Assembly (NCBI GenBank): GCA_964642445.1
Contig: CAZXQZ010000004.1
Coordinates: 1 to 46,136, forward strand
Reading direction: 5' to 3'
DNA from: an uncultured Anaerolineae bacterium
GTDB lineage: Bacteria; Chloroflexota; Anaerolineae; SSC4; Amarolineaceae
Length of the DNA stretch: 46,136 nucleotides
This document shows, one piece after another, positions 1 to 41,325 of this stretch. A program made the position numbers and the translations under genes. The first letter of the stretch is position 1. Every line of letters begins with the position of its first letter. The notes under the pieces are model-generated. The model made no database searches. It saw nothing but the letters and a program-made list of their open reading frames with translations, and was not told the DNA's origin.

Positions 1-3000
1 TCCCGGGGGAGTGGGCAAAACGCGGTTGCTGCGCGAGGCGGTGAAGCAGGCGCAGCAACAGAAGATGCTGACCACCGATATCATCGACCTGTACCACAGC
101 GACATCCACAGCAATTCGGGGATCGAGCGCGCAGTCATTGAAGGTCTGTGTGCCGGCGTGGACCCGGCTGTCATTGAGTTGATCCAGGACTCCTTCCAGG
201 CCTACGAATCTCTACGACGTGATTTCGATACATTAAGATCGAATACAAACGACATCCAGAGGATTGAAAACGCCCGGTCACAACTGCGCCCGGTTTTTGT
301 TGCATGTTACAACAACCTGACCGCAAAGTACCCGGTTCTTCTCGTGTTGGATACGGCCGAGTTGGTCCAGTTCGAGAGTGACATCATTCAACGCCTGTGT
401 CAGATAGAAAACGTGCCGGTCGAAGTCAAGGCGTGGTTGACCACTACACTACCACAGCTGCACAACAGCGTGATCTTGTTGGCCGGTCGTGGTCCTCGCC
501 AGGAAGTACCACACGATCCGCGCCGTCAATTATGGAATGACATCAAAAAGGCCCTCGCTGGCCTGGATCCATCCCATGTCCACTGGTTCGAGTTGGGTGA
601 GTTTGCGGAAGAGGACGGTGTTCGTTACTTTGATGCGGTTGCCGAGTTGATTCGAAATATGTGGACCCAGCATCCCCCGGGCACGTACAAAGACGATCTA
701 CAAAATGCCGTGGCTATGATTCAGGGAATTGAACCAGAAGATCGAATGGCTATCTGCCGAAGCCTCGGCGGACGTCCAATCCGCCTGGGTTTGTTCATAG
801 ACTTGTTGGCTGCCGGTGAGGACCTGACACCAGTGACTGCGGTTGGCGCACGATGGGACGAGACGATACAGGCAGCAATCATTGGACGGCTGACCAGGAT
901 CAGTCCTGACGTACCCTTACGTATCATGCTGGATTACCTGGCGGCGACGCGTCATGGATTGAATGCTGCTTTGCTGAATGTGCTGCGGCCAGAGTGGACC
1001 CTTGAGGAGTGCCAACAGCGTTTGAACCTGGCAAAAAAGCATAGTTTTGTCAAAACGCGCCCTCACACCGAGATGGTATTTCTGCACGACGAAATGTACG
1101 ACCTGTTGGATACGAGCATTGCACAGCCGCAGCATAGTCGATTTCGCACCTTCTATCAGAAGATTGCAGGATACTACGAAAACCTCATCAGCGAGCCTTC
1201 GCATTCTGATCCTCATGTCGATCAAGAAACGCTGCAAGTATTACAGGTTCATTATCGGCTGCTTGATGACCCAGCGCTCGGTTACGCAGCCTATGCGGGG
1301 TTTGACCAAGTAGCTATCGAAGGGTATGAGTTTGGCCATGACATGCGGCTGCGCGACGAAATCCTGCGCTTCTATGACAATAAGCACAACGAGACGATAG
1401 CCGACAACCGCGGTGTGCCGAGAACGGTTCTTGACTGCGACAGTGCCGTGCGCTGGGTTCAGCGGCATTTATCACGCGGCGAGACGCAGCGAGCGGCAGA
1501 GGTATCTGAGATTCTCCTGGCACACGGCCCCGACCCCTATCCTGCATTGCGTGCCAGGCAAGAGACAGTCCCGTATGAGCTGTCTGCTCAAGATGCAGCT
1601 GATGCCCGTCGCATCCTGTCCAGTGCCGGTCCATCCTTTTGGGCGCGGCTGCTGACATTCTACGGTGAAGCACTCCTACAGCTTGAAGCACCTTACGAAA
1701 AAACAAAGAGGGTGCTGGACACAGCCATCCAGCTTCTCGAAGATGAGAATGTGACTGACATACGCAGCATTCCGGGATCGGTGATGCCGCTGATCTTGCG
1801 GCATGCATATGCCAATCGATGGCACTTCAATCGGACCTACGAGCTTCCCGCACAGGCATCTGACCTTCAGCGAGTCGCAGAGGAATTGGCACAAATTCTA
1901 CAGTTTGGTCCATCACCTTACCCAGGACTTGTTGTCATTCGAAGCGGAACCAGCGATCGGCGATTACCTTTTGACATCGAAGAAGCGCGCCGCCTCTATG
2001 GTAATGTCTACACTCTTTTCTGGGCAGAGGTTCTGGTGGATTATGGCGAAAAGTTGGTGTATCTGGCGGTGCCCTTTGCTGGTACCGAAAGAGTTCTGCG
2101 TCATGCCATCGATCTCCTGAAAAACATGCCGGTAACGGATAGGTTTCCATCCGAGCGCCGCTTGTTGCGCCTTGGCGCTTCCTACAATCTCCTGGGGTAT
2201 CTAAACCGCACCCACGGGTTTCACGCCCAGGCGCGAGAAGAATATCAGCGCGCATTGGGCCAATACCCACAATCGGCCCAAGCGGAGCGAGCCACAACGC
2301 AGACCAATCTCGCCTATCTTCTCAGCCTGTTGGGTCTCAGCCGACAAGCCAGGACCAATGTCGAGGATGCCATTCAAATCCAAAGGGATCTGGGTAACCA
2401 AGAGGACGTCGCTTTGGGTTACAGCACGCTCGGACTGATCAACACGCGCGACGGGCACCCAGACTGGGGCGCCGAAAGAAGTCGAGAAGCGTTGCGCATC
2501 TCCCAGTCATTGAACTCACCTCGCGTCGAAGGCCTGTCTTTGTTAGGTCTGGCGTACGCATTGCGCCAGCAAGGTGAACATTGGAAACTTCAAGTCTGCA
2601 CAGCTGCGCAGGCCAAAACATTCTATGAAGAGAGCGCCAATTTACTCCGCCGTGCAGTGGCTATTTTCGAAAATGACGTCATCGAACCGAGCCGTCTGTG
2701 GGAAGCGTACAATGAGCTAGGCAGCGTGTACGGCGATCGGGGATGGCTGTATGCGACATCGGATGAAACAATCGATGAAAACCAGAAACAGATGGCTTTG
2801 CGCTTTTACCAGGAGTCGATTGTTCACCAACTCAACGCTGATAGAATTGCACGAGAACACGCTCTCCCGCTGCAGCGTATCGATTCCCACATCGACCTGG
2901 CACAAGTCTACGGAGACCGGAGTTTCTTGTTTGCATCGATCGGTCAACACACGAACGCATCGACAAATCGCGTCGAAGGCGAGAAGTTGTTGATGGCTGT

Positions 3001-3406
3001 GCGCACTGAATTGGCCCCGGAGAGTTCTCGTCTTATTCCTGGCACTGGATTTGCCGGACCGGGCCAACGCGGTGTTGCCCATTTGCTGCACCTGGGCAAA
3101 AGCCATTTGTGGCGCGGGGTGTGGGCTTTTCGTGACGTTGAGTATGAGCTCGTTCCTGATTCTGAAAAAGACCTGCGCATGGGACTGGCTACCCAAGAGC
3201 TCATCACGGCGGCAGCCTATTTCCAGCACTACTGGCGGACATCGCCTGACCTCGATCGCACTTTTGCGTATTTGGGACGCTTTCTCAAATTGTTCCAGGT
3301 GTCACCGGAATGGGCAAAAAAGCAAATCAGTGCTTTCAATCACCAATACCCGAACATCGACCTACCCGCCGTGCGTGAAGCGATTGAGGACATCATCGGT
3401 CAGTGA
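1..3406 (+). CDS. STAND-type P-loop NTPase with C-terminal TPR repeats; 5' end lies upstream of the window
   Basis: The frame is open from base 2. A Walker A motif (PGGVGKTRLL) sits at the window edge, so the N-terminal domain is missing. The C-terminal third has TPR-like repeats (NLAYLLSLLGL...ALGYSTLGLIN...GLSLLGLAYAL). The stop codon TGA 3404-3406 overlaps the GTG start of the next gene. Confidence 0.7.
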   Translation, partial: PGGVGKTRLLREAVKQAQQQKMLTTDIIDLYHSDIHSNSGIERAVIEGLCAGVDPAVIELIQDSFQAYESLRRDFDTLRSNTNDIQRIENARSQLRPVFVACYNNLTAKYPVLLVLDTAELVQFESDIIQRLCQIENVPVEVKAWLTTTLPQLHNSVILLAGRGPRQEVPHDPRRQLWNDIKKALAGLDPSHVHWFELGEFAEEDGVRYFDAVAELIRNMWTQHPPGTYKDDLQNAVAMIQGIEPEDRMAICRSLGGRPIRLGLFIDLLAAGEDLTPVTAVGARWDETIQAAIIGRLTRISPDVPLRIMLDYLAATRHGLNAALLNVLRPEWTLEECQQRLNLAKKHSFVKTRPHTEMVFLHDEMYDLLDTSIAQPQHSRFRTFYQKIAGYYENLISEPSHSDPHVDQETLQVLQVHYRLLDDPALGYAAYAGFDQVAIEGYEFGHDMRLRDEILRFYDNKHNETIADNRGVPRTVLDCDSAVRWVQRHLSRGETQRAAEVSEILLAHGPDPYPALRARQETVPYELSAQDAADARRILSSAGPSFWARLLTFYGEALLQLEAPYEKTKRVLDTAIQLLEDENVTDIRSIPGSVMPLILRHAYANRWHFNRTYELPAQASDLQRVAEELAQILQFGPSPYPGLVVIRSGTSDRRLPFDIEEARRLYGNVYTLFWAEVLVDYGEKLVYLAVPFAGTERVLRHAIDLLKNMPVTDRFPSERRLLRLGASYNLLGYLNRTHGFHAQAREEYQRALGQYPQSAQAERATTQTNLAYLLSLLGLSRQARTNVEDAIQIQRDLGNQEDVALGYSTLGLINTRDGHPDWGAERSREALRISQSLNSPRVEGLSLLGLAYALRQQGEHWKLQVCTAAQAKTFYEESANLLRRAVAIFENDVIEPSRLWEAYNELGSVYGDRGWLYATSDETIDENQKQMALRFYQESIVHQLNADRIAREHALPLQRIDSHIDLAQVYGDRSFLFASIGQHTNASTNRVEGEKLLMAVRTELAPESSRLIPGTGFAGPGQRGVAHLLHLGKSHLWRGVWAFRDVEYELVPDSEKDLRMGLATQELITAAAYFQHYWRTSPDLDRTFAYLGRFLKLFQVSPEWAKKQISAFNHQYPNIDLPAVREAIEDIIGQ

Positions 3407-3930
3407 TCTCTAACATTCACGCGGGTGCCGTAGCCTGTTGTTCCATTCGTCACGCCCTGCCAGCCGATGCCCCAACCATCGTGGCCGGCATCGATGCCGT
3501 CTGCGCCGAGGGCGGCGCCTTTGAAACGACGCGGTACGTTCCAACACCGGCCTGGGAAACGGTGCTGCACCACCCCGAAACAGTGCCCGACCACCTCCTG
3601 GTGGTTGCGGAGCACGACGGTTGTTTTGCCGGTGCCGGACGTTTGTTCCCGACCCCCACAGATTTTTTGTGCCATCACGTTACCGATTTGGGGATCTTCG
3701 TCGCCGCTGGTTTGCGGCGACGCGGTATTGGCACGCAACTGATGACCACGATGCTCGATTGGGCGACGCAGAAGGGGTTCGAGAAGGTCACGTTGAGCGC
3801 CTTCGCCAGCAATGCTGCCGCGCTGACCCTATTCGAACGTCTTGGCTTCGTCGAGGAAGGTCGCCGCCGGCGCCAGTTCAAAACCGGCACGACGTATACC
3901 GATGAAGTGTTCCTGTCACGTTTTCTGTGA
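3403..3930 (+). CDS. GNAT family N-acetyltransferase
   Basis: 175 aa with an acetyl-CoA binding motif (RRRGIGTQLMTTMLDWA) and the signature LGFVEEG near the C-terminus. The GTG start overlaps the upstream stop (GTGA). Its own stop overlaps the GTG at 3927 of the next ORF. Confidence 0.8.
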   Translation: MISNIHAGAVACCSIRHALPADAPTIVAGIDAVCAEGGAFETTRYVPTPAWETVLHHPETVPDHLLVVAEHDGCFAGAGRLFPTPTDFLCHHVTDLGIFVAAGLRRRGIGTQLMTTMLDWATQKGFEKVTLSAFASNAAALTLFERLGFVEEGRRRRQFKTGTTYTDEVFLSRFL

Positions 3931-3947
3931 TCCTTAAGGAGATCATC

Positions 3948-5450
3948 ATGCAGCTTCCAGACACTGCGGCCATCATACTCTCACCCTACGATAGTTCCCT
4001 GGGGTTCTCTCCTGGTCCAGAACTGGAAAAGGACTGCGCCTGCAGCACGCCGGACTTGTACACCCATACGCTGCCTGTGCAACCGTCAGGGCCCCGTGCC
4101 GACCGCCACTACCAGGCCCAGGCACTGTTCCAGCAACCCCTGCACACCAACTGGACCCTGCTCTGCAACCCGGCCGCCACCCACAGCCTGGCCGTGGTCA
4201 CGCCGCCGGTGCTCGACATCCTGGCCGCCTTCGCACAACCGCGTACCCTGTCCGACGGCATCCGGCACGCCGGCGCACCAGCTCACGGCCCGGCCACCGC
4301 CCACCGCCTGGTCGACCTGGGGCTGCTGCGCGTGCCCGACACGACGCCGGCCCTCCCCGCGCCAGACACCACCCTCACCGCCTGGTTACACGTGACCAAC
4401 GCCTGTAACCTGCGCTGCACCTACTGCTACGTCAACAAAACCGCCGACCGGATGGCGGCCGAAACCGGACGCCAGGCCGTCGATGCCATCCTGCGCACCG
4501 CACAAAACAATCACTTCCAACGGGTCAAAATCAAATACGCCGGCGGTGAGGCCACACTCGATTTTGGCCACGTTCTGGCCCTGCACGACTATGCCCGCCA
4601 GCAGGCCGCCCGGCATGATCTGACCCTCGACAGCGTCGTGCTCAGTAACGGCGTCGCCTGGAGCCAGCGCATGATCGCGGCCCTGCAGGCCCACGACCTG
4701 CGCCTGATGATCTCGCTCGACGGTATTGGCGCTGCACACGACGACCAGCGACCCTTTGCCAGCGGCCATGGCTCTTTCAGCCACGTGGTTCGTACACTCG
4801 ACCGCCTGGCCAGCGCCGGTGTCACGCCGACAATCTCGGTGACCATCACCGACAACAACCTGGCCACCCTGCCCGAAACTGTGGATTGGCTCCTCCAGCG
4901 GCAGCTGCCGTTCACGCTGAACTTCTACCGAGCCAACGACTGTGTGACCAGTCCCAGCGACCTCACCCTGCGCAACGACCAGGTTATCGCAGCGCTGTAC
5001 GCGGCCTTCGCCGTCATCGAAGCTAACCTGCCGCCCTTCAGCCTGTTAGATTGCCTGGCCGACCTGGCACAGCTCGATGCGGTGCACGATCGGCCCTGTG
5101 GCGCAGGGCAAAATTACCTGGTCATCGATCACAACGGCCACGTCGCACGCTGCCACATGGAGCTGGCACACCCCGTCACCGATATCACAGCCGCTGATCC
5201 ACTGCTTGCGCTGCGTGCACGCCCCACGGGCTGGCGCAACGGACCGGTCAGCGAAAAGACCAGCTGCCAGAGCTGCACCTGGCGCCACTGGTGCGCCGGC
5301 GGCTGCCCACTGCTGACTTATCGTGCCACGGGACGCTGGGACGTGCAGTCACCCTACTGCCAGGTCTATCAAGCCATCTTCCCCAAGATTCTGCGCCTGG
5401 AAGGGCTGCGGCTGCTGCACGATGCCCTCCCGTCCATGAAGCCGACCTGA
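3948..5450 (+). CDS. radical SAM / SPASM-domain enzyme with ~150-aa N-terminal extension
   Basis: A CxxxCxxC radical-SAM cluster motif (TNACNLRCTYCY) sits about 150 aa from the start. The C-terminal SPASM/twitch Cys pattern is CGAGQNYLVIDHNGHVARC...CQSCTWRHWCAGGCP. A strong SD (AAGGAG, 3936-3941) lies 6 nt before the ATG at 3948. An alternative GTG start is at 3927. Confidence 0.85.
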   Translation: MQLPDTAAIILSPYDSSLGFSPGPELEKDCACSTPDLYTHTLPVQPSGPRADRHYQAQALFQQPLHTNWTLLCNPAATHSLAVVTPPVLDILAAFAQPRTLSDGIRHAGAPAHGPATAHRLVDLGLLRVPDTTPALPAPDTTLTAWLHVTNACNLRCTYCYVNKTADRMAAETGRQAVDAILRTAQNNHFQRVKIKYAGGEATLDFGHVLALHDYARQQAARHDLTLDSVVLSNGVAWSQRMIAALQAHDLRLMISLDGIGAAHDDQRPFASGHGSFSHVVRTLDRLASAGVTPTISVTITDNNLATLPETVDWLLQRQLPFTLNFYRANDCVTSPSDLTLRNDQVIAALYAAFAVIEANLPPFSLLDCLADLAQLDAVHDRPCGAGQNYLVIDHNGHVARCHMELAHPVTDITAADPLLALRARPTGWRNGPVSEKTSCQSCTWRHWCAGGCPLLTYRATGRWDVQSPYCQVYQAIFPKILRLEGLRLLHDALPSMKPT

Positions 5451-5525
5451 GTGACAGTCATCGCAGTTTAGACAAGACGCCCCACACATTTCCCACCTTG
5501 CGGACGCACGTCGGCGAGCGCATTC

Positions 5526-5534
5526 TTATCCACT
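5526..5534 (+). promoter_or_regulatory. DnaA-box-like site TTATCCACT (8/9)
   Basis: Matches the consensus TTATCCACA at 8 of 9 positions. A second weaker site, TTATCCTCG, is at 5605-5613. Both lie in the 206-bp intergenic region upstream of the 5657 gene. Confidence 0.3.
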
Positions 5535-5656
5535 TTGTCACAAATGCCACACGGCTGTAACTGGTATGCCATGATGATGTTATGTCGTGCATACCTGAAT
5601 TGTGTTATCCTCGTGTCAGCCGTGCAGGTAACTCATTCAGAAAGGAGCAACGGTCG

Positions 5657-6595
5657 ATGCAAAACAACTACAGCTTCGGTCCGATTGTCGGATTCTTGAT
5701 CTTCGTCGTGCTTGGCACCGCGATCCTTACGGTGGGGGCCGCCGGGACTTACGGACCACAACAACAGGCCGTGGCAAACCGCATCAACGCCGAAGTCGAG
5801 TATCTCAGGGGCAAATATGCCCAAGAACTGGCGGCCAGTCAGGCGGAGATCAACGCGGCAATCGCCAACGCACCGGCCCTGGCGCAACTGGAGCTTGATC
5901 GCCAGGCGCAGGAGCTCGCACAGCAGAAACGAGACTTCGAGTTGAATTCGGGCATCAAAGAGTCCATACCCTACGGCATCCTTGCCCTGACGGTCGCGGC
6001 GGCTGTCATAGCTGCAGCCTACGCCGCTTCACGCACAACGGGCAGCATTGCAGTGGGTCACGTACCCGCCGAGTCAGCCAGTGGCGAACATCAGGCTCGA
6101 CAACCAGCCAACCCCCACCGGACACTGGAAGCAAGCACTCCGTCCGGTTTGCGGTCACGTCCCGCCACGGCCCGCCCTGCCGAGCAGCCACCCTCCGCTA
6201 ATGGCCACACCGCCTCGCGCATGCGTGCGTATCGGCAGATTCTCGAACGCGACCACGCCACAACCGAGCAGCTTGGCCAGCAAATGACAACCCAGCAAAA
6301 TCAGATCTGCGCGCTATCTGAACTGATCATCAGTGTACAGAGAGCCGTCGAACAGATCGCAACGACGATGCAGGCTCGTGATGATCTGCTCGTCACACAG
6401 ATAGAGGACATCCAGGCTGCACTCCACCAAATCGATGCAGTGCGCACCAGCGAACCGAAACTGATACAGAACAACGGCCAGGAACATGCAATCGACATTC
6501 GGGAAATCAGCCGGTCAAGTGCCAGTCACAACGGCACCCATTTGACAAAGGAGGCACCGGGGCAGCACCCATCTACCTGGCGCAAAGCCGCCTGA
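5657..6595 (+). CDS. hypothetical membrane protein with coiled-coil segments
   Basis: ATG follows an SD (AAAGGAG). Two hydrophobic helices are present (IVGFLIFVVLGTAILTVGAAG and ILALTVAAAVIAAAYAA). Heptad-like Ala/Gln/Glu-rich stretches occur. I recognise no known family. Confidence 0.55.
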   Translation: MQNNYSFGPIVGFLIFVVLGTAILTVGAAGTYGPQQQAVANRINAEVEYLRGKYAQELAASQAEINAAIANAPALAQLELDRQAQELAQQKRDFELNSGIKESIPYGILALTVAAAVIAAAYAASRTTGSIAVGHVPAESASGEHQARQPANPHRTLEASTPSGLRSRPATARPAEQPPSANGHTASRMRAYRQILERDHATTEQLGQQMTTQQNQICALSELIISVQRAVEQIATTMQARDDLLVTQIEDIQAALHQIDAVRTSEPKLIQNNGQEHAIDIREISRSSASHNGTHLTKEAPGQHPSTWRKAA

Positions 6596-6689
6596 AGCAC
6601 TCAGCAAAGGATAAAGCGCAGTCCGCACTGGCCCATGCGGGCTGTGCCGTTCTTCTGGATTGCAGCGCAGCCAGGGCGCTCTGATGGCA

Positions 6690-6746
6690 AGAAGTACATA
6701 TCCAAGTCATAAGATATATGATTAGTATAGTAGTCGTAGTAGTAGG
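6690..6746. other. AT-rich stretch, candidate DNA-unwinding element
   Basis: The sequence GAAGTACATATCCAAGTCATAAGATATATGATTAGTATAGTAGTCGTAGTAGTAG is about 31% GC in a ~65% GC context. It includes a TAG/TCG trinucleotide run. Confidence 0.35.
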
Positions 6747-6757
6747 GGCTGGGGAAA

Positions 6758-6766
6758 AGTGGATAA
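6758..6766 (-). promoter_or_regulatory. DnaA box (8/9, TTATCCACT on minus strand)
   Basis: The plus strand reads AGTGGATAA. Confidence 0.35.
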
Positions 6767-7002
6767 CACCCAGTTTCGCCGCATGCAACCACAAGCGCTT
6801 GTGTCCGGCACCCGCGACGCCCCCTACATATGGGTTTTGCGCTGTGCATAAGCGTGGGGAAAAAGCTGGGGGCAGCCGCGGGAGTCTGTCCTGTCCATCT
6901 GGCCCTGCCCCGACGACCGACACTAGATGTTGTGGTTTTGCGTCTGGGACCGCGCAGATATAGGTGAACCACCCGGAGCCAGGGTTGGGATATTTTTGGC
7001 AC

Positions 7003-7011
7003 TTATCCACA
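7003..7011 (+). promoter_or_regulatory. perfect DnaA box TTATCCACA
   Basis: Exact 9-mer consensus. Confidence 0.5.
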
Positions 7012-7044
7012 AAACTGACAAACGTAAGCAGTTTCTCCCCAGAG

Positions 7045-7053
7045 TTATCCACA
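7045..7053 (+). promoter_or_regulatory. perfect DnaA box TTATCCACA
   Basis: Exact 9-mer consensus, 42 bp downstream of the first box and in the same orientation. Confidence 0.5.
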
Positions 7054-7087
7054 GAAGCTGCGCATATCCCAACCTGCCGTGGGATAT

Positions 7088-7852
7088 CTACCTGGCACCG
7101 TGATCCCAGTTTTGGACGTCCGTGGGATCGATTCCTTGCTTCAATTGCCGGATCAGGACCCGCAGCGCCTGAATGGCATCCCCGGTGGGCGGGCTGCCGG
7201 TGACCTCCATGACCAGGGCCGAGACCTGTTCACGCCAGAGATCGGCCTGTTCACGCAAGGTCGCACGTTCGGTATCGAAACGGGCTTCGATCGTGGCCAA
7301 CTGCTGCGCCAGCTGCTCACGGCCATTTTTCTCCCCGGCCCACTCCGTGCGGTACCAACCCAACGGCTTGCTGTCACCGGGCAGCGTAACCCGGCTGCAA
7401 TCGGTTTCGATGGGCGGTTCACCCGGCAAGGCCTTGGTGCCGTTCAGATAAGGCAGCGGATCCGAGAAACCAAACCAGCCATCATCGCGTGAATAAGGAT
7501 TGATGCGCAGGCCGAAGTGCAGGTGAGCCCCGGTGGTGTTGCCGGTGTTGTCCGATTGGCCAATGACGTCGCCCGCTTTGACCCGATCCCCTTCACCGAC
7601 GCTGAATTTGTCCAGGTGGGCATACACCGTCTCACCCCAGGCGTGCTGGAGCTTCACATAGTTGCCGTATTGCTTCTGGCTGGAGGCTTCGGCCACGACG
7701 CCGTCATAGGCGGCGAGAATGGGTGTGCCGTTGGGTATCCCGTAATCGATGCCCTCATGCCCTTTGAGGCCGTACTGATTGTAGTTCTGAGGGTTCTTGC
7801 CAAAGAGCTGGGTGATTCGGAAATCTCCATCGAAGGGTTTGCGCAGTGGCAT
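7088..7852 (-). CDS. M23 family metallopeptidase (LytM-like) fused to C-terminal coiled-coil; no signal peptide
   Basis: N-terminal M23 motifs HEGIDY (HxxxD) and HLHFGLR (HxH) are both intact. The C-terminal ~100 aa are Gln/Glu/Arg-rich heptads. An SD (AGGAG) sits 9 nt before the ATG. There is no N-terminal hydrophobic segment. Confidence 0.75.
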   Translation of the reverse strand: MPLRKPFDGDFRITQLFGKNPQNYNQYGLKGHEGIDYGIPNGTPILAAYDGVVAEASSQKQYGNYVKLQHAWGETVYAHLDKFSVGEGDRVKAGDVIGQSDNTGNTTGAHLHFGLRINPYSRDDGWFGFSDPLPYLNGTKALPGEPPIETDCSRVTLPGDSKPLGWYRTEWAGEKNGREQLAQQLATIEARFDTERATLREQADLWREQVSALVMEVTGSPPTGDAIQALRVLIRQLKQGIDPTDVQNWDHGAR

Positions 7853-20170: not shown

Positions 20171-21997
20171 TCAACGTTCTACCTGGGGGAGGAACAGGCG
20201 CGGCGGCAGAAGGTAGGCCGGCGCGCTGACCAGGTTGTTGCTGGGGTTGGTATCGCCAGACGGTTGCGTCACGGTGGCATACAGTTCGTAAATGCCGGGC
20301 ATGACGTTGGTCCAGGGTAGGGTCACTTCCAACGGAACGCTGGGTGAATTCTGGGCATTGATCACCACGCTGCCCAGGAGTGTGCCACCGCCGCTGGGCG
20401 CACCCAACCAGAACTGCACGGTCAAATCCCCGGTGACACCGATGCTGCCGCGGTTGCGCACCGCCACGCGCAGGGTGGTGGTAAAAGGCTCACCCGGTGC
20501 CAGTGTAGACCAGTCGGGCGCATCGGCCGTCAGGTTGCGTACGGCAATGTCCAGCATGTTGACCGGCGTCACGCTAACGCTCTTGGAATTGTTGGTCTCC
20601 AGGAACTCGGGAATGGCGTTGTTCGGGTCTGCCTTGGCGTGCACAGTCGTTGCGCTGTTGAGAACTACCTGCCAGTTCACCTCTGTGTACGCTGCCGGGC
20701 TCCAACGCGGCGGCAGTCCCGCCGGTACGGTGTTGATGCCAATCACCGGCCCACCGGCGTTGGGTCCCCCAATACCAAAGCGGACGTCGAACGGTCCGGT
20801 GGTTGTGTTGCCTTCGTTGTATACGTTTGTCCCTATCGTGATGGCGCTCGGCATGCCCTGGAAAATAGCCCACGTGGGAGTGACCACCGGCGTCTGACGG
20901 ATGGTGAAGTCGACGTAGGGCGTGCGATGACTGGCGCCCCAGCCCGCAAACGCCTGACCCAGGGGCGTAATCGTGCGCCGGGTGCGATCAAAAAGCGAAC
21001 GCACGATGTTGCCCTCGAAATCGTCGCTGTCCAACGAGAACCAACACCAGCGCTGCATCAGCCGGTAATCGTCCTCTGGATAACCCAGGCTGGTATCGCG
21101 CAGGGTATTGAACAGATCGAACGTGCCCACCAGGAAGGCAGCCACACGCGGGTAGTCGAAGCCGTAGTCGACCGGCAGCAGGATGCCGTATTCGCTGTTG
21201 ATGAGCGGCTTATTCTGCTGGCCATGGGCCTTCATCCACTGCCGGAAGCGGATCACCTGGTCGCGCACCAGGTCGATGCGGTCGTGGTCCTGGATTTGCC
21301 ACAGCATGCCGCTGTTAGCATTGACACCGGGTGGGATCGATGCGCCCCACGAACCACGCTCTTCGCGCAGCACGAAGGTGTGAATGTTCCACACATCGAC
21401 CGGCATCGTTGCGCCGTAGCGGGACTGGTAAGTGTTCCACACAATGTCCAGCCACTGCAGGCGCAGGGGTGTGGCCTGGGTCATGCCGCCGATGGCGATT
21501 TTGGCGGTGGGGTCGCGCTGTTTGATGTAGTGGTACGCGTTGTGATAGGCGGTCACGTACTGCTGCGGCGTCGTGTAGCGACCATCCTGGTAGATGTTGT
21601 CGGGCTCGTTGCCTACGAGCCAGATGCCGCCGCGGTTGCCATTGATAGCCTGGTCCAGCTCGCCGCCATAGGGGTAGAAGACCTCACCGTGCACGATCAG
21701 CATTGGCAGGTAGTAGTAACCGTCAGGCCGGGGTGGATTGAGCTGTGATCCCCACTTCAGATACCAGCCACCGTTCAACTGGCCGACGGCGAAGTTGCGG
21801 ATATCGGTGGTTACGCCAAAGCCAGCACGTTCGTTGTCCGAGCCGACGTACAAGGCGGATGGTGTGCCTGGCTCGTCGGACTGTGCAAACACGCCATTGG
21901 CTGTGACCAGCAACAGCAGACAGACGATCACGATGGAGATGATTTGGCGGCTGCGCGTAGGGTGGGTGGCCCTGGAGTTCGTCATGTTGCACCTCAC
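20171..21997 (-). CDS. secreted glycoside-hydrolase-like (clan GH-A, NEP motif) protein with C-terminal CARDB-like domains
   Basis: A signal peptide. WLVGNEPD is a clan-A catalytic acid/base motif. Two C-terminal domains carry ETNN/NN motifs typical of CARDB. Confidence 0.55.
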   Translation of the reverse strand: MRCNMTNSRATHPTRSRQIISIVIVCLLLLVTANGVFAQSDEPGTPSALYVGSDNERAGFGVTTDIRNFAVGQLNGGWYLKWGSQLNPPRPDGYYYLPMLIVHGEVFYPYGGELDQAINGNRGGIWLVGNEPDNIYQDGRYTTPQQYVTAYHNAYHYIKQRDPTAKIAIGGMTQATPLRLQWLDIVWNTYQSRYGATMPVDVWNIHTFVLREERGSWGASIPPGVNANSGMLWQIQDHDRIDLVRDQVIRFRQWMKAHGQQNKPLINSEYGILLPVDYGFDYPRVAAFLVGTFDLFNTLRDTSLGYPEDDYRLMQRWCWFSLDSDDFEGNIVRSLFDRTRRTITPLGQAFAGWGASHRTPYVDFTIRQTPVVTPTWAIFQGMPSAITIGTNVYNEGNTTTGPFDVRFGIGGPNAGGPVIGINTVPAGLPPRWSPAAYTEVNWQVVLNSATTVHAKADPNNAIPEFLETNNSKSVSVTPVNMLDIAVRNLTADAPDWSTLAPGEPFTTTLRVAVRNRGSIGVTGDLTVQFWLGAPSGGGTLLGSVVINAQNSPSVPLEVTLPWTNVMPGIYELYATVTQPSGDTNPSNNLVSAPAYLLPPRLFLPQVER

Positions 21998-30895: not shown

Positions 30896-32815
30896 ATGCG
30901 TGTCATCGGTACCGCCGGCCACGTCGACCACGGCAAATCAACGCTGGTTCTTGCCCTGACCGGCATCGATCCTGATCGGCTTAAAGAAGAAAAAGCGCGC
31001 GAGATGACCATCGATCTCGGCTTCGCCTGGCTGACGCTGCCCGGCGCACAGGGTGAGCCGGAGCGGGTCGGAATTGTCGACGTGCCCGGGCACATCGATT
31101 TCATCAAGAACATGCTGGCCGGCATCGGGGGTATCGATGCCGCCCTGTTGGTGATTGCAGCCGACGAAGGGGTCATGCCGCAGACGCGCGAGCACGTCGC
31201 AATCCTGGACCTGCTGCAGGTGCCGGGCGGGGTCGTTGCCCTGACCAAAACCGACCTGGTCGAAGACGAGGAGTGGTTGTGGCTGGTGCAGGACGAGGTT
31301 CGCGAGGTGCTCAAAACGACCGTGCTGCGCGCCGCACCGATCGTGCCGGTGTCGGCACGGAAGCAGCAAGGGCTGGACGCGCTGCGCCAGGCCCTGGCGA
31401 CGACCCTGGCCCAGATCCCGGCACGGCTGAATCGGGGGCGGGCGCGCCTGCCGGTCGATCGTGCCTTCAGTATGGCCGGTTTTGGCACCGTCGTCACCGG
31501 CACCCTGCTCGATGGCGACCTGCGCGTGGGCGACGAAGTCGAAATCCTGCCGGCCGGTTTGACGGCGCGCGTACGCGGCTTGCAGGCACACAAAGAGAAG
31601 ATCGAAACGGCTCACCCCGGCAGCCGGGTAGCGGTCAACCTGAGCGGTGTCCATCCCGACCAGGTGCCGCGCGGGCAGACGCTCAGCCTGCCCGGGACGC
31701 TGCACAACAGTTATCTGCTCGACCTGCGCCTCCATCTGCTGCCCGGCGTGGCACCGCTCAAACACAACCAGTTGGTCGATTTCTTCAGCGGCGCGGCCGA
31801 AGTGCCGGCCTACGTCAGGCTGCTGGACAGCGAGCGCCTGGAACCGGGAACCGACGGCTGGGTGCAGTTGCGCCTGGTCGAGCCGCTGGCCCTGCTGCGC
31901 GGCGATCATTTCATCATCCGCCAGCCCTCGCCCAGCCATACCCTGGGCGGCGGCCTGGTGGTCGATCCCCGGCCAGCCCGGCGCTGGCGCCGCATGCGCG
32001 CTGATGTGATTCGCCGGCTGGAAACGCTCCAGCACGGCACACCCGGCGACATCTGGCTGCAAGCACTCATGCGCGAAGAACCGTCCACCCCGCGCACGGT
32101 CGATGCGCGCAGCGGCCTGCCGGCTGGCAGCGCCCATGCCGCCTGGCAAGAGGTGGTGGCGCGCGACGACCTGGTGGCGCTCGGCCTGCAAACCAGCCTG
32201 GGACCAGACACGCTGGTGATGTCGCGCGGTGGCTGGAGCCAGGTTACCGATCAGCTGCTGGCGATCCTGGCGGACTATCACCGTAGCTACCCCCTGCGGG
32301 CGGGCATGCCGCGCAGCGAACTAAAGTCGCGCCTGGACCAGGGCCGGCGAACCGCCCTGGCGGCACGCGCGTTTGCGGATATTCTCGCCCGTGCCGCCGA
32401 GGAAGGCTTGCTGCACGTCACCGAATCGGTGGTGTACCAGGCAGGGCACCAGGTGACGTTTTCCCCGGCCCAGGAGAAACTGGTGCAGCAGCAGCTGGCC
32501 CTGTTTCGCCGCCAGCCGTTCACCCCACCGGGCATCGACGAGACACGCAGCGTGCTGGGTGACGATGTGCTGGCCGCCCTGTTCGAGCAGGGAAGGCTGG
32601 TCAAACTCAACGATGATGTGGCGCTGGACGCGGCGGCCTATAAAGACATGGTCGATACGATTCGCCAGATTATTCAGCAGGAGGGCAGCGTCACGGTTGC
32701 GCAGGTGCGTGACCGGTTCAACACCAGCCGCAAGTATGCCCTGGCGATCCTGGAGTATCTGGACGCGCAGCGGGTGACGCGGCGCGTGGGAGATGGGCGG
32801 GTGTTGCGATTTTAG
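30896..32815 (+). CDS. selB: selenocysteine-specific translation elongation factor SelB
   Basis: The N-terminal GTPase region MRVIGTAGHVDHGKSTL...DRLKEEKAREMTIDLGFAW aligns to E. coli SelB MIIATAGHVDHGKTTL...DRLPEEKKRGMTIDLGYAY. The 639-aa length includes the C-terminal winged-helix extension. Confidence 0.85.
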   Translation: MRVIGTAGHVDHGKSTLVLALTGIDPDRLKEEKAREMTIDLGFAWLTLPGAQGEPERVGIVDVPGHIDFIKNMLAGIGGIDAALLVIAADEGVMPQTREHVAILDLLQVPGGVVALTKTDLVEDEEWLWLVQDEVREVLKTTVLRAAPIVPVSARKQQGLDALRQALATTLAQIPARLNRGRARLPVDRAFSMAGFGTVVTGTLLDGDLRVGDEVEILPAGLTARVRGLQAHKEKIETAHPGSRVAVNLSGVHPDQVPRGQTLSLPGTLHNSYLLDLRLHLLPGVAPLKHNQLVDFFSGAAEVPAYVRLLDSERLEPGTDGWVQLRLVEPLALLRGDHFIIRQPSPSHTLGGGLVVDPRPARRWRRMRADVIRRLETLQHGTPGDIWLQALMREEPSTPRTVDARSGLPAGSAHAAWQEVVARDDLVALGLQTSLGPDTLVMSRGGWSQVTDQLLAILADYHRSYPLRAGMPRSELKSRLDQGRRTALAARAFADILARAAEEGLLHVTESVVYQAGHQVTFSPAQEKLVQQQLALFRRQPFTPPGIDETRSVLGDDVLAALFEQGRLVKLNDDVALDAAAYKDMVDTIRQIIQQEGSVTVAQVRDRFNTSRKYALAILEYLDAQRVTRRVGDGRVLRF

Positions 32816-32828
32816 ATTCTGGATTGGG

Positions 32829-34472
32829 TTAGTCGAGGTTCCCGTGGACGAGGTGGCCGTCGAGGAGGGTGGCGTCGATTTGGGTGGTGAGGACCTCTTC
32901 GGGATTGATGTGGTAGATGTCGCGTGAGAGAACGACCAGGTCGGCCAGTTTGCCGGGGGTGACCGATCCCTTGATGCTTTCTTCCCCGCTGGCGTAGGCC
33001 GCACCCAGCGTATAGGCGCGCACGGCCTGTGCGACGGTGATGCGTTCCTGCGGAATCCAGCCGTCTTGCCCTGGCGTACCGTCGGCGCGACGGCGCGTGA
33101 TTGCGGCGTGAATCCCTGCCAGCACGTCGAAGGGCTCGACCGGGGCGTCCGAGCCAAACGCAAGCACAGCCCCTGCCTGCGCCACGCTGTGCCAGGCGTA
33201 AGCCCCACGCGTGCGTGCTGTGCCCCAGTGTCGTTCGGCGTTTAGCATATCGGACGTGGCATGAATGGGCTGCATCGATGCCACCAGGCCAGCGCGGGCC
33301 AGCCGGGGCAGGTCGGCTGGATGAATAACCTGCACGTGCTCGACGCGGTGGCGCAGCGGGGGCCAGGGGCGGTTGGGTACCGCCTGCCCGGCCTGCCACT
33401 CCGGTTCGGCACGGCGCACGATCTCGAACGTGTCCAGGACCGCACGATTGGCGCGGTCACCAATGGCGTGCACCATGATGCTGAGCCCTGCCGCACTGGC
33501 ACGCAGCGCCTCCTCGGTGAATTCTTCGGGATCGATCGTGCACACCCCACGCCAGTCCGTTTCCCCCGCATACGGCTCCAGCATCCAGGCCGTGCGTGAA
33601 CCAAGGGCCCCATCAGCGAAGAATTTGACGCCGCCGATGCGCAGCCATTCACTGCCGAACCCGCTCTGGATACCCAGCTCGATGGCTGCTGCCAGGTGCT
33701 CGCGCGGCAGGTTTTGGTTGACGCGCAGCCCCAAGGCGCCCTGGCGCTGCAAGGTCTGGAAAGAGCGCAGGGCCAGGGCCTGCGGTGTGTCGTTGGCTTC
33801 TTGAATGCTCGTAATCCCGGCAGCCCAGGCCAGGGGAGTGGCGGCCCGCAGCGCCGCGCAGCTCTCGTCCAGGTCAGGCCGATCCACGGCATTGTCCAGT
33901 AGTTTGATGGCGTTTTCGCGCAGAATACCGGTTGGTGCACCGCTGACCGGGTCGCGCTCGATGACACCGTCGTCCGGGTCGGGCGTGGCGGCGCCGATAC
34001 CGGCTCGCGCCAGGGCCAGGCTGTTGACCCACACCGAATGCCAGTCGTGGCTGTCCAGCAGCACAGGGTGATGGGGTGTCACGGCGTCCAGCAGGGCACG
34101 GGTGGGGGTGCCTTCGGGCCAGACGTTGGCATCCCAACCCCCGCCGCGAATCCACTGGCCGGGTGCCGTGCGGGTGGCACGCTCTGCCACACGGGAGACC
34201 GCTTCCCCGGCCGAGGTTGCGTCGGCCAGCTCGATCCAATGGCGGCGCAGGGCCCAGCCCACGAAATGGATGTGCGCGTCGTTGAACCCGGGCAGCACCG
34301 TCCGTCCGCCCAGGTCCACGCGGCGGGTGGCCGGACCGGCCAGGTGGGCCAGGTCATCGCCGACGGCCAGGATACGCCGGCCAGCCAGGGCCAGGGCTGT
34401 GGCCACAGGCTGCCGGTCATCCTGTGTGTAGACGCGGGCATTATCCAGCAACAGCGTGGCGGTTGAAGTCAC
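32829..34472 (-). CDS. metal-dependent amidohydrolase (amidohydrolase 3 family)
   Basis: Metal-binding motif NDAHIHF, and a 547-aa amidohydrolase-3 layout. Its start overlaps the parB stop by 4 nt. Confidence 0.8.
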   Translation of the reverse strand: MTSTATLLLDNARVYTQDDRQPVATALALAGRRILAVGDDLAHLAGPATRRVDLGGRTVLPGFNDAHIHFVGWALRRHWIELADATSAGEAVSRVAERATRTAPGQWIRGGGWDANVWPEGTPTRALLDAVTPHHPVLLDSHDWHSVWVNSLALARAGIGAATPDPDDGVIERDPVSGAPTGILRENAIKLLDNAVDRPDLDESCAALRAATPLAWAAGITSIQEANDTPQALALRSFQTLQRQGALGLRVNQNLPREHLAAAIELGIQSGFGSEWLRIGGVKFFADGALGSRTAWMLEPYAGETDWRGVCTIDPEEFTEEALRASAAGLSIMVHAIGDRANRAVLDTFEIVRRAEPEWQAGQAVPNRPWPPLRHRVEHVQVIHPADLPRLARAGLVASMQPIHATSDMLNAERHWGTARTRGAYAWHSVAQAGAVLAFGSDAPVEPFDVLAGIHAAITRRRADGTPGQDGWIPQERITVAQAVRAYTLGAAYASGEESIKGSVTPGKLADLVVLSRDIYHINPEEVLTTQIDATLLDGHLVHGNLD

Positions 34473-35371
34473 GTGCTCTCCCCCAGGATGGCCTCGTAGA
34501 CACTCTGCAGCTCTTCGTCCGAGTAGAAGTGGATCACCAGGCGTCCGCGCCCGCGGCGGTTACGGCTGACATCTACCTTGGTGCCCAACCGGTCGCGCAG
34601 CAACTGCTGCATGGCCTGGACGTGCACGGCCTGCGGATCATCCTCGGCGATCGGCTCGTCCTCTTCGCTGGCAGTGGCCAGGAGCAGGCGCCGTACCAGT
34701 TCCTCTGTTTGACGCACGGTCAGGCTGCGGCGCAGCACCAGGGCCAGCGCCTCCACCTGCAGGTCCTCTTCTTCCAGCCCCAGCAGGGCACGCGCATGGG
34801 CCTCGCTGATTTTGCCGGTGATCAGGGCCTCTTTGACCGGCTCACTCAGACGCAGCAGGCGCAGCGCATTGGTCACCGTGACGCGCGCTTTGCCGACACG
34901 GGTTGCGACCTGGGCCTGGGTCAAACCGAACTCATCCACCAGCATTTTGTACGCGGCCGCCTCTTCCAGGGGGTTCAAGTCGGCACGCTGCACATTTTCC
35001 ACCAGAGCCAACTCCAGCAGCGCCTGGTCGCTAGCTTCTTTGATGACAGCCGGTATCTGCTGCAGACCGGCCAGGCGCGCTGCCCGCCACCGCCGTTCAC
35101 CGGCAATGATGTAGTATACAGGGCCGGTGCCCGTATCATGACCCGGTCCGTGGGTCACCACCAACGGCTGAATCAGGCCATGTTCACGAATCGAATCGGC
35201 CAGCTCTTGCAGCGCCGTGGGATCGAAGCTCTGCCGCGGCTGGCGTGGGTTGGGTGCAATGGCATCGATGGCAATTTCGGACAGGGCCGGTCCGGCGGTG
35301 GTGGGCGCCGCGGGTGTCGTTGGGATCAGGGCACCCAGGCCGCGCCCCAGGCCGCGTTTGGGGTTGTTCAC
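34469..35371 (-). CDS. parB: chromosome partitioning protein ParB/Spo0J
   Basis: GLGRGLGALIP is the ParB box. Confidence 0.9.
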   Translation of the reverse strand: MNNPKRGLGRGLGALIPTTPAAPTTAGPALSEIAIDAIAPNPRQPRQSFDPTALQELADSIREHGLIQPLVVTHGPGHDTGTGPVYYIIAGERRWRAARLAGLQQIPAVIKEASDQALLELALVENVQRADLNPLEEAAAYKMLVDEFGLTQAQVATRVGKARVTVTNALRLLRLSEPVKEALITGKISEAHARALLGLEEEDLQVEALALVLRRSLTVRQTEELVRRLLLATASEEDEPIAEDDPQAVHVQAMQQLLRDRLGTKVDVSRNRRGRGRLVIHFYSDEELQSVYEAILGEST

Positions 35372-36162
35372 GGTTGTTTTGCTCCTGCGATCTGCGCTAC
35401 TACTTCGCGTGCCAGTGCGGTATAGGCGACCGCACCTGGCGAGCGCGGTGCAAAGCTCAAAATCGTCTCGCCAAAGCTGGGGGCCTCACTCAGGCGTACG
35501 TTGCGCGGGATAATGGTTTCGAAAACGGGCACCGGTGCGTGTTCGCGAATCTCGCTGACGACCTGCTGCGACAGGTTGGTGCGCCCATCATACATGGTCA
35601 TCACCAGGCCGCGCACCTTCAGGGTGGGGTTCAAACTGGTGCGCACCAGGTCGATCGTCGACAGCAGCCGGGCCAGGCCTTCCAGGGCGAAGTATTCGCA
35701 TTGGATGGGGACGATGACCCCGCTGCTGGCCGCTGTGAGCGCGTTGACGGTCAGCAACCCCAGGCTCGGTGGACAGTCCAACAAGACGAAGTCGTACGGC
35801 TCCGTCACGTGCTGCAGGAGCGCAGCCAGGGCGCGACGCAGCACGTGCTCACGCGCCAGCGTGGCCACCAGCTCGACCTCTGCTCCAGCCAGGGCCGGTG
35901 TTGCTGGCAGCAGATCGACGCCCACGTGGTAGGTCAGCGTAACCGCCTGCTGCGCCGGCACCTGGTCGATGATCACATCGTACAGGCAGTAGATCAGATG
36001 GTTGGGGTTGATGCCCAGGTGGCTGGTTGCATTGGCCTGGGGATCACAGTCCACCACTAACACGCGCCTATTTTCCGCGGCCAGGCAGGCTGCCAGGTTG
36101 ACCACCGTGGTAGTCTTGCCAACGCCCCCTTTTTGATTGGCAAACGCCAGGACGTGCGTCAT
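35368..36162 (-). CDS. parA: chromosome partitioning ATPase ParA/Soj
   Basis: The deviant Walker A motif NQKGGVGKTTT. Confidence 0.9.
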   Translation of the reverse strand: MTHVLAFANQKGGVGKTTTVVNLAACLAAENRRVLVVDCDPQANATSHLGINPNHLIYCLYDVIIDQVPAQQAVTLTYHVGVDLLPATPALAGAEVELVATLAREHVLRRALAALLQHVTEPYDFVLLDCPPSLGLLTVNALTAASSGVIVPIQCEYFALEGLARLLSTIDLVRTSLNPTLKVRGLVMTMYDGRTNLSQQVVSEIREHAPVPVFETIIPRNVRLSEAPSFGETILSFAPRSPGAVAYTALAREVVAQIAGAKQP

Positions 36163-39779: not shown

Positions 39780-39947
39780 CTACTTGGGCGGCATCTTGCG
39801 CCAGCTCAACGTCACCGTCAAGCGCCGGCGTCCTTTGGCGCGACGAGCTTTGAGCACATTACGGCCGTCCGTCGTCTGCATTCGCTTACGAAAACCATGG
39901 ACGCGCAGCCGACGGCGTACTTTTGGCTGCCATGTTCGTTTGGGCAT
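39780..39947 (-). CDS. rpmH: 50S ribosomal protein L34
   Basis: Hand translation of the minus strand gives [45 protein letters not shown]... An SD (GGAGG) lies upstream. Confidence 0.9.
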
Positions 39948-40263: not shown

Positions 40264-41325
40264 ATGTTGACAGAAGACGCACGTGCGCGTATTCGCCTGA
40301 CCAGTTTGTCGAGCTGCGCGGGCTGAGCATCCAAGCTGGCCCCTGAGGCCCTGGCGCAGGTGCTGCGCCAACTCGGTCCGGTTTTTGATGAGCAGGCCCA
40401 CCCCGAGGTCCTGGTCGGCTTGAACGCGCCCGACGATGCGGTGGTGTATCGGCTGTCCCCCGAACGTGCACTGGTGGTGACGACCGACTTTTTTACCCCG
40501 ATCGTGGATGATCCCTACACCTTTGGCGCCATTGCGGTCACCAATGCCCTGAGTGACGTGTACGCGATGGGTGGTGAGGTTTTGTTTGCTCTCAATATCG
40601 CGGCATTTCCCGAAAATCTACCGTCGGAGGTGGTCACGGAAATATTGCGCGGCGGGGCCGAGCAGGTGCGGCGGGCTGGTTCGGTGATTGCTGGCGGCCA
40701 CACAGTCAAGAACCCCGAACCGCTGTATGGCCTGGCCGTCATCGGTGAAGCGCATCCCGACCGCATCTTTCGTAAGACTGGGGTCCAGCCCGGGGACGTG
40801 TTAGTGCTCAGCAAGCCGCTCGGCACCGGCCTGGTGACAACGGCACTGAAGCGGGAAAAGGCCGCACCCGAGCACGTGGCGGCGGTTGTGGCCAGCATGC
40901 TGCTGCTCAACCGTGACGCCGCCCGGGCTGGCCTGGCGGCCGGTGTGCGCTGTGCAACCGACATCACGGGGTTTGGTTTGCTGGGTCACGCCGTCGAGAT
41001 GGCGCTGGGCAGCCTGGCTGCGCTGCGGTTGTCGATGTCTGCCCTACCCCTGCTGCCAGGTGTCCGGTCGTATGCCGAGGCCGGGATGGTGCCGGGTGGC
41101 ACTGAAAGCAACCGGGCATATTTTGCACCGCAGGTGCAGCTCGATCCGGCGTTGACCGTCGTGGACGAATGGATACTGCATGACCCGCAGACATCGGGCG
41201 GGTTGCTGCTGGCCGTGCCGGCCGCCGGGCTGCCCCACTTTCTGGCGGATTGTGCTGGGTCCGGCCAGGCGGTGTGGGTGATTGGCCAGGCCGTCGAAGG
41301 CCACGGCGTTCAAGTTGTTGCCTGA
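40264..41325 (+). CDS. selD: selenide, water dikinase (selenophosphate synthetase) with in-frame UGA selenocysteine codon
   Basis: MLTEDARARIRLTSLSSCAG-U-ASKLAPEALAQVLRQ aligns to E. coli SelD [24 protein letters not shown]. The TGA at 40324-40326 falls at the Cys17 position. VVTTDFFTPIVDDPYTFGAIAVTNALSDVYAMGG matches the SelD core. Confidence 0.85.
40353..40369 (+). promoter_or_regulatory. candidate bSECIS apical hairpin (GGCGCA-GGUGC-UGCGCC)
   Basis: A 6-bp stem with a 5-nt GGU-containing loop, about 27 nt 3' of the UGA. Confidence 0.25.

Follow-up and report, generated by a model that had tools for sequence, protein, structure and literature searches.

The stretch of DNA analyzed here comes from an uncultured Anaerolineae bacterium of the phylum Chloroflexota (assembly GCA_964642445.1, contig CAZXQZ010000004.1, positions 1 to 46,136), and we refer to all of its 46,136 nucleotides as the window. 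Two of its genes converge on a gap in which about 400 bases (6690-7087) form a candidate chromosomal replication origin (oriC). The left-hand gene (5657-6595, + strand) encodes a membrane/coiled-coil-like protein with no Pfam or PHROG match, and the right-hand gene (7088-7852, − strand) encodes an M23 peptidase (Pfam PF01551) without a signal peptide. Between them lie clustered DnaA boxes, a run of DnaA-trios, and an AT-rich DNA unwinding element (DUE). A preliminary description of this DNA had proposed an oriC at this place, unlinked from rpmH. The present analysis supports that proposal through the conservation of the motif cluster and through a basal unwinding system (BUS) that the description had overlooked. 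Thus, 6690-7087 is very probably the oriC of this chromosome or, at minimum, its unwinding part. What we observe at the site is an ordered sequence grammar, its statistical improbability, the instability of the duplex, and conservation across lineages.

Two exact TTATCCACA boxes, reported earlier as lying 42 nt apart in the same orientation, are indeed found on the + strand at 7003-7011 and 7045-7053, with a start-to-start distance of 42 nt. The first reads TGTGGATAA on the − strand (7011-7003). The second belongs to a tandem pair (7033-7053, + strand) composed of the weak box TTCTCCCCA (7033-7041), the trinucleotide GAG, and the exact TTATCCACA; on the − strand, this pair reads TGTGGATAA-CTC-TGGGGAGAA, i.e., a strong box with a weak box 3 nt off. 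An 8/9 box had also been noticed on the opposite strand, and our box scan located two of them, at 6758-6766 (TTATCCACT) and 6843-6851 (TTATGCACA). The latter again forms a tandem pair (6843-6863, − strand) with the weak box TTTTCCCCA (6855-6863), 3 nt (CGC) away. The former, on the − strand, anchors the BUS module, which is the decisive element and goes beyond what the earlier reading had seen. The boxes form two opposed arrays, one directed towards the M23 gene and the other towards the trios and the DUE. With at least three boxes of ≤1 mismatch within a few hundred bp as the criterion, the element holds four, plus three or four weaker ones, making 7-8 boxes altogether.

The number of boxes in the whole window is unremarkable (8 boxes with ≤1 mismatch against 4.85 expected, a count of 8 being reached in 9/100 shuffles), so that it is the clustering that carries the weight. 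Four of these eight boxes crowd into 296 bp (6758-7053). In the best 500-bp bin, 2 boxes are exact, 4 have ≤1 mismatch, and 7 have ≤2; the corresponding numbers for the runner-up are 0, 1, and 6. The second-densest bin of words with ≤2 mismatches (six, at 20951-21500) lies inside a CARDB-domain open reading frame (ORF, 20171-21997); it has neither an exact box nor trios, and is probably compositional.

The 8/9 box at 6758-6766 opens an ordered module. Read along the − strand, the order is TTATCCACT (6766-6758), TTTTCCCCA (6758-6750), GCCC (6749-6746), CTA CTA CTA CGA CTA CTA (6745-6728), and AT-rich DNA (6727-6690). The weak tandem DnaA box TTTTCCCCA (6750-6758, − strand) has 2 mismatches and overlaps the strong box by 1 nt, and the GC cluster GCCC (6746-6749, − strand) separates the boxes from the trios. 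The spacer from the box to the first trio, TTTCCCCAGCCC, is 12 nt long. On the + strand, to which the DnaA oligomer is predicted to bind, the trios read TAG TAG TCG TAG TAG TAG (6728-6745; 3'-GAT-5'). The run comprises five GAT and one GCT, i.e., 5/6 in-register triplets. In 300 dinucleotide-preserving shuffles of the window, 5/6 in-register CTA never occurred (0/300; the maximum was 4, reached once), and when the criterion was relaxed to ≥3/6 CTA, with a spacer of 0-16 nt and a box of ≤2 mismatches, 1/300 shuffles satisfied it. The combination of box and trios is unique within the 46-kb window.

Published search rules for a BUS allow the box ≤2 mismatches, let the spacer vary from 0 to 16 nt (mode 10-13), and ask for ≥3 NAN trios, preferably 3'-GAT-5' (PMC8287927). 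The module at 6690-6766 satisfies these rules in the correct orientation, with AT-rich DNA directly past the trios. We checked this orientation against the example of Clostridioides difficile, in which the boxes are followed by the trio sequence 5'-CACCTACTACTATTACTACTATGA-3' and then by the DUE (PMC7561715). The pattern of this type of origin can be written as TTATCCACN-N12-(CTA)n plus paired exact boxes. This module of box, GC cluster, trios, and AT-rich DNA is what an origin has and a plain cluster of DnaA-binding sites lacks.

The DUE itself (6690-6727, 38 nt, 26% GC) was delimited by composition and duplex stability. A 57-bp stretch of about 31% GC had been pointed out before; it corresponds to 6690-6746, for which we measured 32% GC over 57 nt. 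No 50-nt stretch of the window is richer in AT than 6695-6744 (72% AT). Furthermore, the least stable 41-nt duplex of the window starts at 6692, with a free energy (ΔG) of -42.7 kcal/mol. The window mean for duplexes of this length is -62.2 (standard deviation 4.2) and the runner-up reaches -47.8, which places the DUE about 4.6 standard deviations from the mean.

Relatives of this locus came from two sources. A scan of species-representative genomes gave two Anaerolineae metagenome-assembled genomes (MAGs), L002 and L003, whose M23 proteins share 86% and 80% identity with that of the window. A protein search with context look-ups added L125, L126, and L127 (M23 78%), L128 (59%), and L130 and L131 (55%). 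The locus has been assembled from samples that include SRR14932662, SRR32939167, and SRR28617542. The window's own M23 protein was matched exactly on one 2.2-kb contig only, and no exact-protein matches are on record for the radical SAM protein and the last ORF of the window. Wherever the contig reaches, the cluster is kept motif by motif downstream of the M23 orthologue in five other lineage groups (55-86% identity). The preliminary description had named the absence of the cluster from related genomes as an observation that would speak against an origin; the relatives retain it. More distant M23 homologues (44%, 42%) are not syntenic, and one of them lies in a phage-like contig.

In the relatives, the pair of strong and weak boxes is kept, with the second box 42-43 nt away; the equivalent of the strong box 7003-7011 reads TTATCCCCA in L130. 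The TCCCAA and ACCACWACATCTAGT motifs are likewise kept. As for the BUS, the box is TTATCCACA or TTATCCACT (exact TTATCCACA in L125, L128, and L130), the spacer is exactly 12 nt in every lineage, and CTA CTA (CTA) CGA/CAA CTA... follows, the trios being conserved in L125/L127, L003, L128, and L130. Counterparts of the weak BUS box are TTATCCCCA (L003), TATCCCCA (L125), and AATCCACA (L128, L130). The sequence of the DUE is not conserved; its composition is kept, with 65-72% AT in the next 40 nt. On the other hand, the 6843-6863 pair is degraded in L125 and L128, its strong box TTATGCACA being kept in L003 and L002.

A four-way alignment puts numbers on this distribution. The share of invariant columns is 100% in the box 7003-7011, 95% in the box pair 7033-7053, 88% in a further motif at 6920-6936, and 69% in the BUS (6728-6766), compared with 9-29% in the inter-motif segments and the DUE. 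Specifically, TTATCCAC at the BUS anchor box and TCCCAA (within 6983-6993) are invariant. The DNA between the motifs is unalignable and its segments vary in length. Such a pattern is the phylogenetic footprint of what appear, from the alignment, to be protein-binding words. Indels, together with spacers that do not align, exclude both a conserved ORF and a structured RNA across the region.

One of the words is widespread. The 19-mer CTGTGGATAACTCTGGGGA (7036-7054, − strand) consists of the strong DnaA box, CTC, and a weak box TGGGGAnAA, and it occurs exactly in at least 120 unrelated metagenome contigs (>120; loci L005-L124). Among the matches listed, relatedness never extends beyond 21-33 nt, and many of these contigs carry more DnaA-box-like words within about 100 nt. 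In L054, CTGTGGATAACTCTGGGGA sits between dnaA and dnaN. The word looks like an origin-type box pair shared across phyla. The metagenome scan with CTGTGGATAACTCTGGGGA was dropped as a source of relatives for footprinting, as the word occurs in box-rich DNA of many lineages.

By analogy with Bacillus subtilis and the BUS model, the site would bind DnaA, unwind, and fire as follows. DnaA would fill the high-affinity boxes, those at 7003 and 7045 lying on one strand and those at 6843 and 6758 on the opposite one, every high-affinity box being partnered by a presumptive weak TTnTCCCCA box. ATP-DnaA would then oligomerize from the tandem boxes 6766-6750 over the 4-nt GC cluster and reach the five TAG (3'-GAT-5') DnaA-trios of the + strand (6728-6745). 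Stretching of the + strand would melt the adjoining 38-nt AT-rich element (6690-6727), where the replicative helicase could load and two forks start.

Several observations weigh against an origin at this site. First, the usual marker genes are missing: neither dnaA nor dnaN was found in the window, which covers 6.7 kb on one side of the site and 39 kb on the other. Both genes are also absent among the called genes of L126, which on the DUE side extends about 10 kb beyond the origin, some of those genes having no family match, and the flanks seen in the relatives lack dnaA and dnaN as well. Second, the two flanking genes converge on the site, so that both would be head-on to the forks. Third, no parS-like site (TGTTTCACGTGAAACA, ≤2 mismatches) was found in the 46 kb, and a single site with 3 mismatches lies at 45381. 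Finally, the best GC-skew change-point falls at 16-21 kb (residual sum of squares 82), compared with 104 for a change-point at 7 kb and 119 for the null, in a fit that is confounded by gene-orientation blocks and has four genes to the left of the candidate.

The last point needs to be seen with the rest of the skew. Cumulative skew within the window declines to about 16-17 kb and then climbs. A gene-wise regression that sets gene orientation against side gave a polarity of the origin type, negative on the left and positive on the right, and long orientation blocks coincide with the fitted intervals. Because of these blocks, and because only four genes lie to the left of the site, local skew does not pinpoint an origin; the skew of the window is compatible with an origin in its left part. 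The skew minimum at 16-21 kb was itself considered as an origin and rejected, since it offers isolated 8/9 boxes inside ORFs, no trios, and no sizeable AT-rich gap.

The other place that could have housed an origin is next to rpmH. The genes parB (34469-35371), parA, jag, yidC, yidD, rnpA, and rpmH (39780-39947) all lie on the − strand, 27-33 kb from the site, with the parA/parB region at 34469-36162. It had been remarked that rpmH has no dnaA beside it. This is true, selD being there, and it is by itself no argument for 6690-7087. The rpmH-selD gap had also been named as a place where a skew minimum would overturn the proposal; its 317 bp are without a DnaA box, and we rejected it as an alternative origin.

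Given the distance of the cluster from any dnaA or dnaN, a skew change-point that is not exactly at the cluster, and a non-promoter position between convergent genes, the site could instead be a DnaA-binding regulatory locus (a datA-like sink, a DARS-like reactivation site, or a box cluster of the B. subtilis type), with the true oriC elsewhere, e.g., beside dnaA. We consider this unlikely. As far as is known, datA, DARS, and similar loci are made of DnaA boxes only. Here, in contrast, a box pair is coupled, at the canonical 12 nt and in the canonical orientation, to five trios and to a duplex that is less stable than any other in the window. This coupling is conserved in composition and spacing across lineages, which is the signature of an unwinding site and not of titration.

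The absence of dnaA from view would also suit a bipartite origin, in which 6690-7087 is the unwinding half and a second box cluster elsewhere (e.g., by dnaA) is required, as in B. subtilis, Helicobacter pylori, and C. difficile. Origins with a BUS in one half only are documented (PMC7561715, PMC8287927). The known halves flank dnaA within about 1.5 kb, however, and nothing comparable is present here over the 6.7 kb to one side and the 39 kb to the other. Besides, the element already has its 7-8 boxes in two opposed arrays. The nearest further boxes, at 5526-5534 and 5605-5613, lie upstream of the hypothetical gene 5657-6595. The preliminary description had counted them with the cluster, and the 8/9 and 7/9 words are present as stated; they are not part of the element, as they are not conserved in the syntenic L125/L127. 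For the same reason, we rejected them as a second origin half and as a DnaA-regulated promoter, and they are probably due to chance or strain-specific. A bipartite arrangement thus seems quite improbable, and even in that case the unwinding half would still be at this site. As a separate observation, an inverted match to the BUS box, perfect over 11 nt, includes one of the 5526/5605 boxes.

A mobile-element origin using host DnaA (of an integrated plasmid, a prophage, or the like) appears very improbable. The M23 neighbor is without a signal peptide and matches phage endolysin families via its M23 domain, M23 homologues of 42% identity occur in phage-like contigs, and the DUE-side flank is variable and lower in GC (54-58% over 1-4 kb). 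Against this, the PHROG matches of the M23 protein are generic domain matches, and in the flanking genes searched no rep, integrase, or phage structural gene was recognized. Apart from the DnaA boxes, iterons are lacking, and comparison with 72,556 plasmids and 50,697 phages gave no similarity. Moreover, the site is fixed beside the AI-2E and isocitrate/isopropylmalate dehydrogenase genes wherever the contig reaches (L003, L125-L127, and L132; M23 78-86%). The window is chromosomal.

The last alternative is scarcely conceivable: that the boxes cluster by chance, or that DnaA-box-like words happen to stand in a promoter region or in a conserved small RNA. The window-wide count of eight boxes with ≤1 mismatch is not significant alone, and a weak promoter-like site exists on the − strand (7021-6992). 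Chance is ruled out, however, by the clustering, the trio run, and the fact that precisely the box and trio words are conserved across lineages, and an RNA or ORF by the indels and unalignable spacers across the region. In the window itself, Rfam gave no family at the gathering threshold or at E≤1 and a tRNA scan gave none.

With 6690-7087 taken as an oriC, its remaining conserved motifs deserve description. A repeat search retrieved the inverted pair noted earlier, whose arms bracket the exact boxes: GGTTGGGATAT at 6983-6993 (+ strand; ATATCCCAACC on the − strand), which carries the TGGGATAT motif, and ATATCCCAACC at 7064-7074 (+ strand; GGTTGGGATAT on the − strand). The arms are 11 nt long and 100% complementary. 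A recurrence of CCGTGGGAT had been described too, and the word does occur at 7077 and 7120; the second copy is coding, inside the M23 ORF, and we dropped it as a motif of the element. The true recurring word is TGGGATAT/ATATCCCA, with three copies in 105 bp (6986-6993, 7064-7071, and 7080-7087) and a fourth in the 46 kb at 10736. The third copy (7080-7087, + strand; ATATCCCA on the − strand) abuts the M23 stop codon, and it is kept in L003 and has one mismatch in L002. This word may be a low-affinity DnaA site or the site of a lineage-specific regulator.

A further motif, recognized by alignment, occupies 6920-6942 on the − strand. It has the form CGCAAAACC-ACAACATCTAGTGT (in full, CGCAAAACCACAACATCTAGTGT) with the core ACCAC[AT]ACATCTAGTGT, it is also present in L130, and it is possibly a low-affinity DnaA site (AAACCACAA). 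A second copy, CGCAAAACC..CATATGTAGGGGG (in full, CGCAAAACCCATATGTAGGGGG), lies at 6820-6841 on the − strand and is partly conserved in the relatives. The two share the direct repeat GGTTTTGCG, at 6833 and 6934. The repeat can be written as CGCAAAACC(A)CA[AT]AT[CG]TAG…, its copies lie about 100 nt apart, and the copy with ACCAC[AT]ACATCTAGTGT is near-invariant across lineages. The − strand promoter-like site at 7021-6992 is the one site of this kind, and it is weak.

The two flanks of the site differ in their stability. The M23 gene is the constant neighbor, and its side is syntenic in L003 and L125-L127, where it comprises polysaccharide genes and the genes for an AI-2E transporter and isocitrate/isopropylmalate dehydrogenase. 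L132 has the AI-2E gene as well, and in L128 that position is taken by an uncharacterized 437-aa gene. The DUE-side neighbor is variable: the window and L125-L127 have a hypothetical membrane protein there, L003 has obg, L128 a nucleotidyltransferase/HEPN pair with AbiEi, and L130 an unknown 390-aa gene. Over a longer distance, the DUE side holds radical SAM, GNAT, and TPR genes in the window (1-6595), obg and nadD in L003 (11329-16353), toxin-antitoxin/AbiEi genes in L128 (2690-4949), and an unknown gene in L130 (1408-3822). Judged from these sequences, the DUE-side border of the origin looks like a rearrangement or insertion hotspot. The M23 homologues of about 42% identity (L133/L134) lie in phage-like contigs with many small ORFs and NinG. 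The origin-adjacent M23 peptidase may, by its homology, be a domesticated phage endolysin.

Elsewhere in the window, selD (40265-41325, + strand) is the divergent neighbor of rpmH in place of dnaA. It contains an in-frame TGA (…SCAG-U-ASKL…), making SelD itself a selenoprotein, and its real start is at 40265 rather than at the GTG 40360 of the ORF list. The gene selB (30896-32815, + strand) lies 7.5 kb upstream of selD.

A wider picture can be drawn, which as a whole we regard as speculative and rather doubtful. In it, the oriC of this Anaerolineae lineage, perhaps class-wide, would have moved from dnaA to the M23 peptidase gene. An undescribed origin-binding regulator would have its sites in TGGGATAT/ATATCCCA, whose three copies bracket the strong boxes, and in ACCACWACATCTAGTGT, which has a second, degenerate copy about 100 nt off. 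The dnaA-adjacent prediction for Anaerolinea thermophila would be mislocated, and the DUE-side border would be a hotspot of insertion or rearrangement.

Few phyla have experimentally characterized origins, and in a full-text literature search we found no experimental study of any Chloroflexota origin. The present site offers a clean, conserved, and testable candidate oriC for an uncultured Anaerolineae lineage, in which the grammar of box, GC cluster, and DnaA-trio known from Bacillus holds almost letter for letter. It leaves the current picture of bacterial origin function unchanged. It could serve as an anchor to orient MAG contigs and for replication-rate (peak-to-trough) estimates. Furthermore, the two further conserved motifs could mark lineage-specific origin regulators.

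Among known systems, datA and DARS1/2 of E. coli and the DnaA-box clusters of B. subtilis resemble this site in having several close boxes outside a promoter, but they are not known to have trios or an adjoining DUE, both of which are present and conserved here. In E. coli, gidA/mnmG and mioC flank oriC and dnaA is about 42 kb away, a precedent for an origin away from dnaA. Like that origin, the present site is unlinked from dnaA, has opposed arrays of DnaA sites with strong boxes flanked by weaker ones, and has its DUE at one border, where it adjoins a strong box that faces outward. Unlike it, the site has no GATC-rich 13-mers and no known IHF or Fis sites, and its flanking genes are different and converge on it.

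Closer to home, Anaerolinea thermophila UNI-1 (ORI94030346) is the sole Anaerolineae prediction that we found in Table S2 of Pelliciari et al. (PMC8287927). That prediction is weak: it lies at coordinates 420-460, scores 7, and combines a 2-mismatch box and the trios TAGCAGCATTAGCAT with a spacer of 16 nt (PMC8287927). The organism belongs to the same class; the element described here is a far better BUS and stands in a different gene context.

The nearest likeness is with the BUS of B. subtilis oriC (boxes 6/7, GC cluster, trios, and AT-rich 27-mer), with which the site has order, orientation, and spacing in common. Predictions of a BUS, covering about 1,750 origins of bacteria, were published by Pelliciari et al. 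(2021, PMC8287927). Written 3'→5' as in that work, our site reads AATAGGTGA/AAAGGGGT/CGGG/GATGATGATGCTGATGAT, and the entry for Deinococcus maricopensis in its Table S2 reads AATAGGTGT/CAAAGGTGT/CGGG/AATGATAATGATGATGAT... The Deinococcus, Geobacter sulfurreducens, and Selenomonas entries of that table show a near-identical string, including the CGGG spacer. In contrast to these BUS entries, the site is not between dnaA and dnaN, and its boxes overlap by 1 nt instead of lying 0-3 nt apart. Features that appear specific to this origin are its gene context (a convergent M23 gene and variable genes), the 1-nt overlap of the BUS boxes, and the conserved motifs TGGGATAT (three copies) and ACCACWACATCTAGTGT. 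By the criteria applied to its sequence, the site would belong with the DnaA-dependent chromosomal origins that have a BUS.

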